Below, in pieces: positions 4,438 through 10,039 of a stretch of 64,000 nt of DNA. Both the position numbers and the translations under genes were made by a program. The notes beneath the pieces are model-generated. The model saw only the letters and a list, made by a program, of their open reading frames with translations, ran no database searches and was not told where the DNA came from. Source of the DNA: an uncultured bacterium (GTDB lineage Bacteria; Patescibacteriota; Doudnabacteria; UBA920); contig CAVVMJ010000005.1 in NCBI GenBank assembly GCA_963749445.1, positions 34,915 to 98,914 of the forward strand, given 5' to 3'. The first letter of the stretch is position 1. Every line of letters starts with the position of its first letter.

Positions 4438-7261
4438 TATATAAACAATAAGTCATTCACACAGGCGATATGAGAAAAGCCCTATTAGCATTAAGCAATA
4501 AGCGGTTTATGTAAACGGCCCAATTTAAATTGTGCCTTCATAGCCGCGAAAGCGGTTTTTTTGTCGCTCATTATCAATAATCAAATCAAATATAGTGCGA
4601 CAATCCGTCGAAGCTTTAGCGAAGGCGGATTCACCCAAAAATTGTCACCAGATAAATACTGCTCTGCGGGTCTCAGCGTTCCGTAAAACCTAGGGAACAC
4701 AGGCTTGTAGAACCGTTTTCTAGAGCAGTAGTTATGTGGTGGTAATACATCAGCTGATAAGCCAGTAAGCTAGTAAGCAAATCAGGCTATTACAGACCAA
4801 GCACTTTAACAACAGAATAAAGATTATCGTTCTTACCAAGTAACGATAATCTTGGGTAGAAAACATTGTAAGTAAAACATTGTATCCAAGTAATTTGTTG
4901 ATGATCCGCTTTGCCGCGGATCGTCGTCACAAATTGCTAGTCAAATATTAAACACAGACTTTTCGGACAATAAACGGACTTTGGCGGACTCGTTCCGCTT
5001 TAGTCTGTTCCCAGTCCGCAACAGTCAGTGTACATAGATTAAAACAGACAAGGGTATACGGTGGATGCCTAGGTAATATGAGCCGATGAAGGACGCGACA
5101 GCCTGCGATAAGCCTCGGGGAGCTGGCAAATAAGCTTTGATCCGTGGATGTCCGAATGGGGAAACCCACGTACTGGAAGAGTACGTGCTGCTATGCCGTG
5201 GGGTATAGTATGCGGGAACCATGCGAAGTGAAACATCTCAGTAGCATGTGGAAAATAAATCAATTGCGTAGCAATACGCAAAGAGATTCCGTCAGTAGTG
5301 GCGAGCGAAAGCGGAAAGATATAGAAATTTATTCGTTGGGTGGGCTATAGTAGCGCCCGGCGAATAAATATCTATTAGCCCAAACCTAATTAGTGTTTTC
5401 AAAGTCGCAAGACAGAGAATTAAAGATTACAGTCGTTGCTAGTTAGGCGTTATAAGTGGAAGTCATTGCCCCTCTGTAAAGGGGCAGGGAATTATGTTTG
5501 TTGTTTAGCAGAACACGCCTGGAACGGCGGACCAAAGAGGGTGATAGTCCCGTATCGCGAAAAACCATGCAATTTCCTGACTTTTTCTTGAGTACGACCA
5601 GACACGAGAAATCTGGTCGGAAATCAGGTCGACTAAGATCTAAGGCTAAATACTCATATTGACCGATAGTGAACAAGTACCGTGAGGGAAAGGTGAAAAG
5701 CACCCCGGAAGGGGAATGAAATAGTTTCTGAAACCGTATACTTACAAGGAGTGGAAGGGCTTACAGTGCGAAGCACTGTAAACTGTTAACAATTAACAAT
5801 TAACGATTGACCGACTGCAAACTGCAGTTGTACCAGCGTTAATTGTTAATCGTAAATCGTTAATTGTTTGCAGCGCTTCGCGCTGTGCCTAACCGCGTGC
5901 CTATTGAAGAATGATCCAACGAGTTAATCTTTAGCAGCTTGATTAAGTTCTATCAAGAGACGAAATCGTAGTGAAAGCGAGGATGAATAGTCCGTAAAAA
6001 GAATAGTAGTTAGTAGTAGGTAGTTAGTAGCCAGTACAACTTGCGCATTCAAAATGCCGGTTGGTTTGCTACTATCTACTTACTACTTACTACTTACTCT
6101 TTTATGTTGCTAGAGTTAGACCCGAAACCCGGTGAGCTACGCATGGCCAGGATGAACGTGGTGTAACAACCACGGGAGGTCCGAACCCACTATTGCTGCA
6201 AAAATAGGGGATGAGCTGTGCGTAGGGGAGAAATTCCAATCGAACCGGGTGATAGCTGGTTCTCCTCGAAATAGCTTTAGGGCTAGCGTCAAGTGTTCCC
6301 AATAGAGGTAGAGCACTGAATAGAAACCTGCTGCGCAAGCGGTAGGCTCTAACCAAACTCCGAATTCTATTGGCCAAGAACTTGGCAGTCAGTCCGTGAG
6401 GTCTAAGCTTCACGCGACAAATGGAGAAGAATCCACACCACCGTCTAAGGCCCCCAAATCCGAGCTATAGTGCAAAGGATGTGGGGTTGCTCATACAACC
6501 AGGAGGTTGGCTTAGAAGCAGCCATCCTTTAAAGAAAGCGTAACAGCTCACTGGTCAAGCGATCCTGCGCCGACAATATATAGGGGCTAAGCTTGGTGCC
6601 GAAGACGTGGATCAGTTTTGGAGATTAGAGGTTAGAAATTAGAGATTGGAGCTGCAGTTCCAATATCCAACTTCCAATTTCCAATCTCCAAAACTGGTGG
6701 TAGAGGAGTGTTGTACATGGGTTGAAGCGGTATGCGTAAGCGGCCGTGGACTTTGTACAAGCAAGAATGTTGGAATAAGTAATATATATAGAGGTGAGAA
6801 TCCTCTTCGCCGAATATCCAAGGGTTCCAGGGCAACGATCGTCGTCCCTGGGTTAGTCGATCCTAAGAGCGGGCCCCAAAGGGTCCGTCCGATGGAAAAT
6901 ACGGTTGATATTCCGTAACCACCTTAACATTATCCAAGGCGGAACGCATCATGGTAGCGTCAGCGTTATCTGACTATTAGCGTCGTTTCAGGCGTAGGAT
7001 GGAGTTGCAGGCAAATCCGCAGCTCCTCAATTTCCGATTACTACCTCGCAAGAGATGTGACCGGCAAATTGGAAGTCTGAATCTGAAAAGAAACCTGGCA
7101 ACGGGGATTAGCGCGAACCAAGGTGCCAAGAAAAGCGTCGTGGTCAGGTGTTAAGGTGCTCGTACCGTAAACCGACACAGGTGGATGGGGAGAGAATCCC
7201 AAGGCGTCCGGAACAATGTTCGTTAAGGAACTCGGCAAAAAAGCAGGTGTACCTTAGGTAT

Positions 7262-7730
7262 ATACCTTGCCCAAAGTTAGAGGTTGGGGGTTAGAGGTTA
7301 GAAGTTGGAATGTGATATAATCAAAATATGAAAGATTTTCACGATCTTGATTGCTATAAAAATTCCAAAAAACTCTACCCCGTTATAGTAAAGGTGACAA
7401 GAACTTATCCTCGAGAAGGATATCAATTAGGCGACCAAACACGTAGAGCAGCCAACGGCATTCACGCTTGTATAGCGGAAGGTTTTGGCAGATCGGTCGC
7501 CGAATTTAAAAATTATTTAACCAGATCGCTTGGTTCAAATAATGAAGTGATTAGTCACATAGAAGACGCGGAAGCAGTGGGCTATATCAAGCCCGAGACC
7601 GCTAAGGCGTTGATTGAAAAATATACTATAGTGGGAAAGCAAATTTATAGGCTGAGAGAAAAATGGAAGTAATCCAATTTCCAATTTCCAATCCCCAACA
7701 TCTAAATTTGGGCCGCAGCAAAAGACCTCT
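7262..7730 (+). other. 23S rRNA IVS carrying an ORF and bounded by low-complexity inverted repeats
   Basis: Left arm TTAGAGGTTGGGGGTTAGAGGTTAGAAGTTGGA and right arm TCCAATTTCCAATTTCCAATCCCCAACATCTAA are near-perfect reverse complements that enclose ORF 7328..7672. Confidence 0.6.
7328..7672 (+). CDS. Four-helix-bundle protein of the 23S rRNA IVS protein family
   Basis: 114 aa. Motifs DQTRRAANGIHACIAEGFGRS and GSNNEVISHIEDAEAVGYI match the family typically encoded inside 23S intervening sequences. The ORF lies wholly inside the rRNA insert. Confidence 0.7.
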   Translation: MKDFHDLDCYKNSKKLYPVIVKVTRTYPREGYQLGDQTRRAANGIHACIAEGFGRSVAEFKNYLTRSLGSNNEVISHIEDAEAVGYIKPETAKALIEKYTIVGKQIYRLREKWK

Positions 7731-7884
7731 CCCGACTGTTTACCAAAAACTTAGGTCCGTGCTAAAGCGCAAGCTGATGTATACGGGCTGATGCCTGGCC
7801 AGTGTCAGAAGGTTAAACCGGTTGGCGCAAGCCGATCGGCCAAGCCCTGATGAACGCCGGCAGTAACTATAACTGTCCTATGGT

Positions 7885-8627: not shown

Positions 8628-9300
8628 AGCGAAATTCCTTGTCGCGTAAGTTGCGACCCGCACGAATGGCATAACGAGTAGAGGACTGTCTTAACGAACA
8701 CTCCGATGAATTTACAATGGCGGTAAAGATGCCGTCTACCCGCAGCAAGACGGAAAGACCCTATGAAGCTTTACTATAGCGTGTCATTGCAATTTTATTT
8801 TTATTGTTTAGCCTAGGTGGGAGCCTTTGAAACTCTGGCGCCAGCCGGAGCGGAGGCAACAGGTGAAATACCACCCTGTAGAGATGAAATTGCTAACCAA
8901 TGTTTAACCTGCATTGGGACAGTGGCTCGTGGGTAGTTTAACTGGGGCGGTTGCCTCCTAAATGGTAACGGAGGCGTTTATTAAGGTAGGCTAGGCATGG
9001 ATGGAAATCATGCCGGTAGTGCAAACGCATAAGCCTGCTTGACTGCAAGGGCGGCGACCCGCGCAGGCACGAAAGTGGAAGTTAGTGATCCGATGCGTTC
9101 GAGTGGAAGACGCAAAGCCCAACGGATAAAAGTTACTCTAGGGATAACAGGCTGATCCTCTCCAAGCGTCCACAGCGACGAGAGGGTTTGGCACCTCGAT
9201 GTCGGCTCATCGCATCCTGGGGGTGTAGAAGCTCCCAAGGGTTAGGCTGTTCGCCTATTAAAGCGGTACGCGAGCTGGGTTCAAAACGTCGTGAGACAGT

Positions 9301-9614
9301 AAAAGGAATAACCATGCTGTCTATAAATTTGGCTAAATCGGTGAAACTCTCGTGGTAGAAAACGCGAGACAATACCGAGGGAAGATTCATCTGTTAGATG
9401 AAAACCCGTAGAGACTACACGCCAGACTATGTAATTATCAACCCGATGATTTATCGGGAACCAGATGAACCGCTGGGATAATACACTTGAAGATATAGTC
9501 CGAACTGCATAGTGATATGTAGAGTGCATTAGAAATGATGCGCCACTTAGTTCAGCGTCTGATCAGCGTTCTAATCGGCGACTAATCAGCGGCGAACTAA
9601 GAAGTAACAAAGTG
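9301..9614 (+). ncRNA. Second, ORF-less group I intron in 23S rRNA (after GAGACAGT, E. coli about 2593 region)
   Basis: The junction restores CGTGAGACAGT|TTGGTCCTTATCTGC. The guide GCTGTCT pairs with exon AGACAGT with a terminal U:G. It ends in G. It shares AGACTACACGCCA and GAAGATATAGTCCGA core blocks with the first intron. Confidence 0.55.
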
Positions 9615-10039
9615 TTGGTCCTTATCTGCTGTGGGTGTACGAAACTTGAGTAGTCGCATCTCTAGTACGAGAGGACCGAGATGCATAGACCTCTGGTGTA
9701 CCCGTTGTCCTGTCAAGGGCATGGCGGGGTAGCTAGGTCTAGTTAGGATAAACGCTGAAGGCATATAAGCGTGAAGCCGTCTACAAAACTAGGTTTCGTT
9801 GTCTGGCGCAAGCCGGACGAAAGGTTCGGGGAAGACTACCCCGTATCACATTAGGTGGTAGTAAGTAGGGAAGTAGGGAGTAGCAGCAATGTTACTAACT
9901 ATCAACTGCAAGCTATTAACTAATTTATAGGCTGCAGGTGTAAGCTTAGTAATAAGTTCAGCCGAGCAGTACTAATCAACCAAAAGTTTTAATCTATTTT
10001 TTGACTAGCAATTTGTGAAAAGAGCGAAGCACCTTATTT

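Follow-up and report, generated by a model that had tools for sequence, protein, structure and literature searches.

Two group I introns, a PF05635 insert at helix 63 and low-complexity hairpins in the 23S rRNA gene of a Doudnabacteria-like bacterium

Introduction

The 64-kb stretch of DNA analysed here (from contig CAVVMJ010000005.1; hereafter the window) carries a 23S ribosomal RNA (rRNA) gene whose conserved blocks are separated by a series of inserts. The locus raises the question of what these inserts are and whether a gene so interrupted can be a working one. We conclude, with a probability of roughly 0.85, that this is the functional 23S gene of a bacterium belonging to the Candidate Phyla Radiation (CPR) close to Candidatus Doudnabacteria, and that it bears an insertion load typical of its group and made up of three classes: two group I introns, an intervening sequence in helix 63, and hairpins devoid of any open reading frame (ORF).

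Each component (introns at 1931 and 2604, ORFs of the LAGLIDADG_1 and 23S_rRNA_IVP families, inserts at helices 25 and 45) has a precedent in CPR or other bacteria. The main text of Tsurumaki et al. (2024, J Bacteriol, PMC11270868) describes insertions in 82% of CPR 23S genes, with LAGLIDADG_1 ORFs clustering at positions 1917, 1931, 1952, 2593, 2604 and 2657, 23S_rRNA_IVP ORFs in inserts of both 16S and 23S genes (named sites 16IS6, 16IS7, 16IS9 and 23IS11) and short inserts at the classical intervening-sequence sites (H25/H45). It gives L2604 in CPR as a site new for bacteria, and cites Brown et al. (2015, Nature 523:208) for CPR rRNA insertions that are "removed from their transcripts". Sites L1917, L1931, L1951 and L2593 had been listed in other bacteria (Haugen et al. 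2007, PMC1995217), and in Coxiella RNase III was shown to cut out an insert that bears an ORF (PMC4990558).

Results

Insertion map of the 23S gene

A preliminary description of the window had placed a 23S gene at 5045-9990. The bacterial large-subunit model of Rfam (RF02541 LSU_rRNA_bacteria, 2111.9 bits, model positions 1-2925) bears this out, assigning 5037..9996 on the forward strand (4,960 nt) to the gene. Inserts were mapped by MAFFT alignment to one E. coli rrl copy (L001). Relative to the standard numbering, this copy lacks 1 nt (GGGATAACAGG begins at 2444 and not at 2445, helix 69 at 1905 and not at 1906); hence, one was added to the positions, which puts the intron sites at U1931 and U2604. 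(Four-digit L numbers denote intron sites, three-digit ones the loci compared.) Identity to the E. coli gene is about 68% over alignable columns, and the conserved core blocks all align, those of the peptidyl-transferase region included. The inserts, all on the forward strand and with E. coli positions as in the aligned copy, are as follows.

5343-5450 and 5463-5515: domain I inserts of 108 and 53 nt, E. coli ~272-310; ordinary sequence, not low-complexity
5757..5874: hairpin of helix 25, 118 nt, after E. coli 538
5995..6101: hairpin, 107 nt, after E. coli 651, within the hairpin E. coli 637-655
6610..6697: hairpin of helix 45, no ORF, ~67 nt extra, E. coli 1162-1183
7022..7078: extra hairpin after helix 58, 57 nt, after E. 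coli 1501; fold z score -2.3
7262..7730: helix-63 insert; alignment block 7241-7724, E. coli ~1678-1761, ~400 nt extra; replaces E. coli ~1700-1760
7885..8627: group I intron, 743 nt, after position 1930 of the aligned copy (L1931)
9301..9614: group I intron, 314 nt, after position 2603 of the aligned copy (L2604)
9844..9923: extra hairpin, 80 nt, A/G/U-rich 5' arm, after E. coli 2830; fold z score -2.9

The hairpin near E. coli 651 is presumably that of helix 31 ("H31"), and we take the hairpin at 9844-9923 to lie between helices 100 and 101 of the E. coli map. For its three interruptions and three hairpins, the preliminary description had given coordinates that proved exact; its list was incomplete, and the inserts at 5343-5515, 7022-7078 and 9844-9923 have been added. 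The domain I inserts have fold z scores of -1.3 and -0.6 and form no exceptional structure. The gene is enclosed by the two halves of a processing stem:

4928..4945, forward strand: leader half, CACAAATTGCTAGTCAAA, exact reverse complement of 10000-10017
10000..10017, forward strand: trailer half, TTTGACTAGCAATTTGTG, pairing with 4928-4945

These 18 perfect base pairs lie inside a duplex of -68.2 kcal/mol, the usual architecture for processing around an rRNA gene, in which the RNase III site would be found.

A length nearly twice the normal one, 68% identity to E. coli and an Rfam score below that usual for full-length 23S genes are also what a decaying, non-functional rRNA copy piling up insertions might present. 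We regard decay as very improbable. The core blocks all align, and both the processing stem and the linked 5S gene (below) are intact; such inserts are the rule in CPR 23S genes by the figure quoted above (PMC11270868, main text); the intron guides track exon changes; and relatives from independent samples keep the architecture, with exons 86-95% identical in the segments compared.

The introns at L1931 and L2604

For both introns, the boundaries given in the preliminary description proved exact, as did the guide pairings that it had proposed (GCCATAG with CTATGGT and GCTGTCT with AGACAGT, each with a terminal U:G). The intron at L2604 scores 62.2 bits (E 2.2e-13) with the group I model of Rfam (RF00028, Intron_gpI), above the gathering score of 50. 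The upstream exon, GAGACAGU, ends at U2604, the intron ends with G9614 and the exon resumes with UUGGUCC. P1 is formed by exon AGACAGU and GCUGUCU at 9316-9322, with a U9300-G9316 wobble at the 5' splice site, and P10 by ACCA and exon UGGU. The intron has a short P5 and extended P8 and P9.2 helices, but neither a P2 nor an ORF. The I-CreI site, L2593, was considered for this intron and rejected: the numbering puts the exon end at U2604, 11 nt downstream, and the landmark A2602 lies within GACAG.

In the 743-nt intron at L1931, the same Rfam check, suggested in the preliminary description, recognised only the 3' core (8393-8574; 37.3 bits, E 5e-7), below the gathering score, because about 430 nt of ORF in the P6 loop split the core. 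Exon CUAUGGU (7878-7884) pairs with guide GCCAUAG (7933-7939) in all seven positions, the last being a U7884-G7933 wobble; the terminal G is G8627, P2 is absent, and P10 joins exon AGC to the GCU immediately 5' of the guide. With the ORF loop removed, the intron was fitted to the family structure described below, giving P4 5/5, P5 3/3, P5a 6/6, P5b 7/7, P6 4/4, P7 5/5 and P9 7/7 pairs. It was added to the family alignment with --keeplength, which lost columns and distorted P1, P3, P8 and P9.x; these helices were therefore checked by hand, and P8, P9 (with a GCGA tetraloop), P9.1 and P9.2 form.

The exons of relatives also bear on P1. The empty L1931 site in L019 reads CCTATGGT joined to AGCGAAATT. 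The exon change A1928U is lineage-specific and present too in this intron-less gene. The guide is GCCAUAG in the window and in L122, L123 and L093; it is GCCUUAG, together with exon CCUAAGGU, in L018, L074 and L091. Thus, the guide change matches the exon change, which amounts to direct covariation for P1 and suggests that the L1931 intron has long been resident in the lineage. The spliced junctions are predicted to read CCUAUGGU joined to AGCGAAAU at L1931 and GAGACAGU joined to UUGGUCC at L2604; the intron-less L1931 target site contains TAACTGTCCTATGGTAGCGAAATTCC.

The distribution of the L2604 intron was surveyed in 185,579 species genomes, which were scanned for AACGTCGTGAGACAGT with any base but T after it; the scan yielded at least 120 loci (L002-L121). 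Among the matches listed, an insertion bounded exactly at 2604 was seen in at least 82 loci; insert sizes were bimodal (253-457 nt without ORF, 696-901 nt with ORF), and nearly all inserts started with GCTGTCT(A/T)TAAA and ended with GTAACAnnAnTG. An alignment of 31 ORF-less members, the window intron included, supports a fold with P1, the P3/P7 pseudoknot, P4, P5, P5a/b, P6, P6a, P7, P8, P9, P9.1 and P9.2. In these 31 sequences, 95.8% of the cells are paired, and both sides have changed in a compensatory way in 51 of the 75 pairs. This level was reached by none of 500 shuffles, and controls with slid partners were 31-37% paired. P1 is invariant in all 31 members. P4 of the window and L019 is a fully compensated variant, UCGGUG/UACCGA as against UGCUGG/UCAGCA. 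By eye, the P10 guide also follows the exon, with ACCA-UGGU in the window, L019 and L093 and ACCG-CGGU in most other sequences inspected.

ORF-less introns at L1931 (L018 and L091) are nearly collinear with the L2604 consensus except for the guide, indicating that one ribozyme family occupies both sites. The two window introns have in common the core blocks AGACTACACGCCA (at 8510 and 9412) and GAAGATATAGTCCGA (at 8541 and 9489), as the preliminary description had noted. Ribozymes that are alike except for the guide point to site-switching through guide change as a plausible route between L1931 and L2604.

The L2604 family also occurs outside CPR. Among the loci listed, about half are labelled Actinomycetota (Solirubrobacterales, Acidimicrobiia, Gaiellaceae), among them the complete chromosomes OY969921.1, OY970158.1, OY969580.1 and OY969106.1. 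Further labels are Capsulimonadaceae (OZ252240.1, OZ255718.1), Omnitrophota (CP070684.1), Planctomycetes, Dormibacteria and Acidobacteria; among the matches listed, long contigs or chromosomes labelled Acidimicrobiaceae also occur. The same matches contain a second L2604 intron family, starting with AGACC, a hairpin and GAGCTGTCC, and many 700-nt introns with broken endonuclease ORFs.

The LAGLIDADG ORF of the L1931 intron

The ORF and a promoter-like element upstream of it are located as follows:

7986..7994, forward strand: extended -10 element TGGTATAAT, in the loop of the P5-extension hairpin, 28 nt 5' of the LAGLIDADG start codon
8023..8550, forward strand: LAGLIDADG_1 ORF, 175 aa, single motif (PF00961, E 4.2e-24, profile positions 1-101 of 102)

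Matches of known structure are I-PanMI, I-SmaMI and I-OnuI (PDB; 1e-27 to 1e-39). The ORF spans the P5 region, P4', P6, P7, P3' and P8, has its stop codon in J8/7, and so overlaps the ribozyme at both ends. Its N-terminal ADNQQE is encoded by J5/4-P4' (GCAGACAAUCAGCAGGAA). The peptide ADNQQE(R/K) recurs (window 8044-8062; introns in L004-L123, at both L1931 and L2604) and is encoded by the J5/4-P4' sequence GACAAUCAGCAGGAA; since this belongs to the ribozyme core, conservation of the peptide is a by-product of constraint on the RNA.

The preliminary description had called the product a LAGLIDADG homing endonuclease. The family assignment stands; the activity does not follow from it. The motif reads GFVDGGG, and codon 27 (GGA, 8101-8103) specifies Gly at the position of the catalytic Glu or Asp in homologues. 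Solved homologues read GEG, AEG or GDG in the PDB alignments as against GGG here, and the motif-bearing homologous intron ORFs printed from the fetched loci all have DGEG (regular-expression count 30). Hence, the acidic residue of an active enzyme is missing. Single-motif LAGLIDADG enzymes work as homodimers, so G27 would remove a metal ligand from both active sites. The protein has probably ceased to act as a nuclease; it may equally well be a homing endonuclease that was disabled recently or one retained as a splicing helper or maturase. Maturase-like activity has been described for a LAGLIDADG protein from a 23S intron of Thermotoga neapolitana (PMC3984707). The extended -10 element is kept in L074 (TGGTATAAT) and L122 (TGCTATACT), and may act as a promoter for the ORF. 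PADLOC and PHROGs scans of this ORF and of the helix-63 ORF returned nothing past "homing endonuclease".

The helix-63 insert

The insert at 7262-7730 consists of a 5' arm, a promoter-like element, an ORF and a 3' arm:

7269..7312, forward strand: 5' arm, purine-rich heptads TTAGAGG / TTGGGGG / TTAGAAG, no C
7313..7321, forward strand: extended -10 element TGATATAAT, 6 nt upstream of the ATG; candidate leaderless promoter
7328..7672, forward strand: ORF of 114 aa, 23S_rRNA_IVP / four-helix-bundle family (PF05635, E 1.7e-21; TIGR02436)
7673..7716, forward strand: 3' arm, pyrimidine-rich TCCAATT repeats, no G in the repeat part

It starts with CCCAAAG and ends with UUUGGG, ahead of GCCGCAGC. Set against the E. 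coli sequence, GCAGGUGUACCUUAGGUAUAUACCUUGC is the counterpart of helix 62. Short hairpins occupy the site in L019 and L093, that of L019 being a 7-bp hairpin, CCCCGAUGAAUAAUCGGGG. Judged from this alignment, the PF05635 insert sits at the tip of helix 63 and not at helix 45. In the fold of the complete insert, a stem of about 40 bp closes the structure (z score -6.3).

The four-helix-bundle protein of the intervening-sequence family, which the preliminary description had recognised in the insert, is upheld by profile scores of 76.8 bits against a cut-off of 33.8 (Pfam) and 70.6 against 24 (NCBIfam), and by a match to the solved PDB structure 2GSC (1.2e-8). Metagenomic homologues are 75-94% identical and CPR-named ones 54-64%. 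The ratio of nonsynonymous to synonymous change (dN/dS) is 0.04-0.07 relative to L122 and L125, with dS above 1; for L122 the values are 0.04 and 1.1, and for the 16S-borne copy of L125 (below) dN is 0.08 with dS saturated. The ORF is under strong purifying selection.

The arms are conserved as well. Between the window and L122 the 5' arm is 96% and the 3' arm 100% identical, compared with 63% at third codon positions of the ORF; relative to the 16S-borne copy, the arms are 79-91% identical (3' arm 91%) and third positions 48%. In the stretch that separates the 5' arm from the ATG, TGnTATAAT alone is conserved; its distance to the ATG is 6 nt in every case, and the spacer diverges. The arrangement TGnTATAAT-N6-ATG is kept in four distinct contexts:

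window: TGATATAAT-CAAAAT-ATG
L122: TGCTATAAT-TAAGCC-ATG
L125: TGATATAAT-CAAGGA-ATG
L135: TGATATAAT-ATAATA-ATG

The window has 11 occurrences of the motif TGNTATAAT (TGnTATAAT) where 2.2 would be expected, a five-fold enrichment (7313-7328, 10494-10509 and 28605-28620, plus eight more sites). In at least three ORFs (7328, 10509 and 28620), one of them encoding pyruvate kinase, the motif precedes the ATG by exactly 6 nt. Leaderless mRNAs transcribed from extended -10 promoters thus seem to be common in this genome; the recurrence of the 6-nt spacing makes the arrangement in the insert look like the organism's normal leaderless gene start, from which the helix-63 protein would be made under its own promoter. 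Because the presumed start lies 3' of the 5' arm, it is the host transcript, and not the mRNA, that the arms would serve. A scan for two-hexamer promoters did not list the extended -10 elements; the scan requires a -35 hexamer.

The PF05635 cassette is found at the same 23S site in L122, L123 and L124, from ENA and JGI samples. In L125-L128 it lies inside a 16S gene, where the protein is 90% identical and the flanks AACGCTGGCGGCGTGCCTAAGACATGCAAGTCG and GGCGAACGGGTGAGTAA identify the site as helix 6 (V1). Free-standing copies occur in Kaiserbacteria (L129) and Wolfebacteria (L133 and L134, inside a type IV pilus operon); both have complementary arms of the TTAGAGG/TTAGAAG type that pair across the ORF. 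The ORFs of L131 and L135 are flanked by periodic repeats of other units. Two further features accompany the 16S-borne copies (L125, 3215-4031; also L126-L128): downstream is a second hairpin-flanked cassette with an 87-aa GIY-YIG protein and arms CCCTACATTTTCTAGTCTTTGTGAA and TTCACGAAGTTTGGAAAATGTAGGG, and upstream is a restriction-modification gene pair.

Hairpins without ORF

The three hairpins that the preliminary description had placed at about 5760-5880, 5990-6110 and 6610-6700 were confirmed at these coordinates. The helix 25 hairpin has arms of TTAACAA-type repeats (5783-5811 and 5845-5873) and CTGCAG in its tip (-46.2 kcal/mol, z score -6.3 against shuffled sequences). In the hairpin near E. 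coli 651, TAGTAGT-type repeats without C (6004-6030) face CTACTTA-type repeats without G (6069-6098; -47.9 kcal/mol, z score -7.6). The arms of the helix 45 hairpin (6613-6654 and 6655-6696) are 42 nt each, 81% complementary and of the same TTAGAGG / TCCAATT type as those of the helix-63 insert (-40.3 kcal/mol, z score -7.1); the right arm is 92% identical to that of the helix-63 insert over 26-27 nt, and the whole hairpin resembles one in the 3' domain of L122. In the stems near 651, at helix 45 and at helix 63, the 5' arms lack C and the 3' arms lack G. Arms of such three-letter composition form few internal pairs and so pair chiefly with one another.

These hairpins change rapidly. In L123, whose flanking rRNA is 86-95% identical to the window, the three hairpins at the same sites are unalignable (33-51%) and built from other repeat units. 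Helix 45 hairpins of 168-194 nt in three CPR-like 23S genes (L015, L074 and L112) are similar in character, yet again differ in their units. The ORF-less hairpins are thus fast-evolving elements at classical intervening-sequence sites, with full turnover between close relatives. The CTGCAG tip was discarded as a general feature: it occurs in the helix 25 tips of the window and L123 and in the helix 45 tip of the window, but not at helix 45 in L123 (CTGCAACATTGCAG) or in L015, L074 and L112. Elsewhere in the window, intergenic hairpins with periodic arms in the style of the rRNA hairpins lie at 38274-38396, 31665-31740, 21677-21735 and 25184-25256, with units ACAAATn, AATCGGAA, CGGATnnn and AAGAATT.

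Salmonella, Proteus, Yersinia and Leptospira carry RNase III-excised intervening sequences at helices 25 and 45. These resemble the present hairpins in being of about 90-120 nt at the same two helices (the helix 45 insert of Leptospira has an ORF); they differ in that the window has periodic three-letter arms and additional, non-classical sites, and in that excision is, here, a prediction. One may ask, then, whether the ORF-less hairpins, and possibly the helix-63 stem, are instead retained as bacterial expansion segments in a 23S rRNA that stays unfragmented. All inserts occupy the ends or the junctions of peripheral helices, where expansion is tolerated, three-letter arms that avoid misfolding would suit a structural extension equally well, and cleavage is here a matter of inference. 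On the other hand, near-perfect duplexes of 30-40 bp are established to be good RNase III substrates, and a structural role that is conserved would be hard to reconcile with the complete turnover of hairpin sequence between close relatives. Inserts excised by RNase III are, moreover, classically located at helices 25 and 45 (PMC11270868), and removal of CPR insertions from transcripts is attributed to Brown et al. (2015) in the main text of PMC11270868. Retention seems unlikely to us, if far from negligible, and excision remains the preferred reading.

Presence and absence among relatives

The inserts are distributed among the window and its relatives as follows:

Window: L1931 intron, L2604 intron and helix-63 insert present; ~1-kb insert at 8956/8957 absent
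L122 and L123: L1931 intron and helix-63 insert present; L2604 intron absent (clean empty site); ~1-kb insert absent
L019: L2604 intron and ~1-kb insert present; L1931 intron and helix-63 insert absent
L063: L2604 intron and ~1-kb insert present; none at L1931; helix-63 region not covered
L124: helix-63 insert present; 1-kb fragment that ends before the L1931 site

An intron of L063 near the L1931 region ends, by eye, just before CCTATGGT, which would put it near L1923. The insert of about 1 kb in L019 and L063 corresponds to window position 8956/8957 (E. coli ~2262), just 3' of the P-loop, and has a group I core (Rfam 103 and 75 bits). E. coli ~2262 is thus a further polymorphic intron site in the lineage. 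The precise empty sites in L019 and in L122 and L123 bespeak mobility of the inserts.

The same comparison bears on the idea that the inserts are assembly chimeras, reads of mobile elements mis-joined into an rRNA contig. rRNA regions are hard to assemble from metagenomes, and the related contig L063 appears to be mis-binned. Nevertheless, the helix-63 insert recurs in three other assemblies (L122, L123 and L124, from ENA and JGI) and the L1931 intron in two of them (L122 and L123), the borders of the inserts coincide exactly with functional splice sites whose guides match, and the contig extends over at least 64 kb with normal genes on either side. A chimeric origin is scarcely credible, and we treat the inserts as genuine parts of the gene.

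Host and genomic setting

Two neighbours of the gene bear on its origin and integrity:

2052-4136: LigA (NAD-dependent DNA ligase), directly upstream of the 23S gene
10343..10458, forward strand: 5S rRNA gene, completing an rrl-rrf unit (Rfam RF00001, 63.1 bits)

No small-subunit (16S) rRNA gene or spacer tRNA was found in the 64 kb, so that the 23S-5S unit is unlinked from 16S. Among named homologues, LigA has its best matches in Candidatus Doudnabacteria (79%) and in bacteria of the Patescibacteria group (71-77%). L019, labelled Doudnabacteria, is among the loci with the closest 23S exons, and L093, with the same label, has the same lineage-specific exon variants CCTATGGT and TTGGTC. LigA homologues and 23S exons place the host, an uncultivated ultra-small bacterium, in CPR (Patescibacteria) and near Candidatus Doudnabacteria. 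Synteny marks L122 as a close relative, with the 5S, DOT1-like, TrmB, GlmS and ADH genes in the order of the window. A cyanobacterial origin, prompted by the heptamer hairpins and a tRNA intron, was dismissed, as the HIP1 site GCGATCGC occurs only once in 64 kb and LigA points to CPR. The LigA search likewise ruled out Hinthialibacterota, an origin prompted by L063 (LMZT01000166.1). This 5-kb contig containing only rRNA sequence, with three group I introns, bears the name "Candidatus Hinthialibacteria bacterium OLB16" in its deposit. Between its 23S exons and those of the window, identity is 93-97.7%, and it is probably a binning error.

Other features of the window were noted in passing. In GlmS (12034-13926), a threonine-dehydrogenase-like protein (13977-15542) and acetyl-CoA synthetase (17253-19307), the family profiles are matched in two stretches or leave long N-terminal extensions, which suggests inserted segments relative to typical bacterial orthologues. 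A tRNA gene on the reverse strand (61492-61817) has its anticodon loop split by a group I intron (~61533-61783; Rfam 109.3 bits), whose P1, GGCUGU with GCAGCC, indicates splicing after U35. ARAGORN missed the unspliced gene and read the spliced sequence as tRNA-Asn(GUU); the intron holds a stretch resembling a tRNA 3' end, GGTTCGAATCCCACATGACGAGCCA. A LOOT RNA motif (RF03000, 73.8 bits) at 54616-54739 on the forward strand, at the start of the ORF 54615-55817, adjoins opposite-strand genes (49088-54552) for a restriction endonuclease of the BPTD_3080 family and for a methyltransferase.

Discussion

The conclusion that this is a functional, group-typically interrupted 23S gene draws on the observed identities, boundaries and folds of the inserts, on covariation, on selection and on presence or absence among relatives. 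From these, the fate of the transcript can be sketched. In each intron, P1 between the guide and the last 7 nt of the exon, ending in a U-G pair, would allow self-splicing by attack of exogenous G, with the 3'-terminal G of the intron at the second junction. Splicing would restore the helix 69-71 junction at L1931 and the A2602 region of the peptidyl-transferase centre at L2604. The L1931 intron has kept a full-length LAGLIDADG gene in which the catalytic Glu has become Gly, and the L2604 intron has lost its ORF altogether. In precursor rRNA, the helix-63 arms (about 40 nt) would pair into a long duplex extending helix 63, the expected substrate for RNase III excision with no religation, and the PF05635 gene would yield a leaderless mRNA, transcribed from an extended -10 promoter of its own. 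The ORF-less hairpins would be excised likewise, or tolerated as surface expansions. The mature 23S rRNA is probably fragmented, a reasonable inference from the known RNase III processing of such stems.

Several points weigh against this account. Splicing, RNase III excision or cleavage and fragmentation are predictions from the DNA sequence. The L1931 intron, alone of the two, misses the Rfam gathering score, and its P3 has 5 of 6 pairs, with an A7949-C8520 mismatch (hand check); together with a probably inactive protein, this leaves its splicing efficiency in doubt. The extended -10 elements come without a recognisable -35. The 23S rRNA of the genome is judged from this one locus, and the helix numbers of some inserts are provisional assignments on the E. 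coli secondary-structure map. Finally, the equivalent ORF of Coxiella is decaying and apparently untranslated (PMC4990558), so that an expressed protein is not the default expectation.

The closest parallel to the overall architecture is the 23S gene of Coxiella burnetii, which also combines a PF05635 ORF-bearing insert with two group I introns, one of them with a LAGLIDADG ORF (PMC4990558, PMC1995217). The sites differ, being helix 63, L1931 and L2604 here and helix 45 (the S23p ORF), Cbu.L1917 and Cbu.L1951 there (PMC4990558, PMC1995217). Both inserts are closed by a stem; RNase III cutting was seen in Coxiella and is predicted here (PMC4990558). Whereas the Coxiella ORF is decaying and apparently untranslated (PMC4990558), that of the window has a dN/dS of about 0.04 and a conserved promoter-like element. 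The Coxiella gene is also without the additional low-complexity hairpins of the window. The L1931 introns of Thermotoga, Simkania and Synechococcus C1/C9 occupy the same site, with 654-700 nt and single-motif LAGLIDADG ORFs of 143-167 aa as against 743 nt and 175 aa here; they too lack P2 and have an ORF reaching into the ribozyme core (PMC1995217). Compared by description, the present intron stands apart in the loss of the catalytic acid and in a guide that fits A1928U (PMC1995217). As to the CPR inserts treated in the main text of PMC11270868, they agree with ours in host group, in introns at L1931 and L2604 that either carry LAGLIDADG_1 ORFs or lack them, in 23S_rRNA_IVP ORFs, in short inserts at helices 25 and 45 and in the many inserts per gene; this gene and lineage are apparently not described there. 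The passages of that main text that were searched make no mention of three-letter heptad arms, of arm conservation around PF05635 ORFs, of an internal extended -10 element or of purifying selection on the ORF.

It seems conceivable, and is offered as a tentative reading, that the PF05635 insert is a conserved, self-contained gene cassette made up of arms, a leaderless promoter and a selected ORF, as opposed to a decaying selfish insert, and that it moves as a unit in CPR genomes, where it would pass from the tips of rRNA helices (23S helix 63, 16S helix 6) to sites in operons or between genes, and back. The arms would then be a module that neutralises the insertion at the RNA level: written in three-letter alphabets and able to pair only with each other, they would zip the flanks together in any host transcript, which would thereby gain a site for RNase III. 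The same process would also have given rise to the fast-evolving hairpins without ORF at helices 25, 31 and 45. Such a cassette, devoid of a recognisable transposase or nuclease, appears to have no earlier description.

Whatever its history, the locus is a clean, annotated case of an interrupted CPR rRNA gene, with splice sites, guides, helix positions and the presence or absence of each insert defined. The spread of the L2604 intron family beyond CPR is a by-product of wider interest. Hairpins with periodic three-letter arms that are wholly replaced between genomes with 95% identical flanking rRNA represent a process worth explaining. Lastly, the helix-63 ORF looks like a working gene, which makes the function of the abundant PF05635 proteins of CPR bacteria experimentally approachable.

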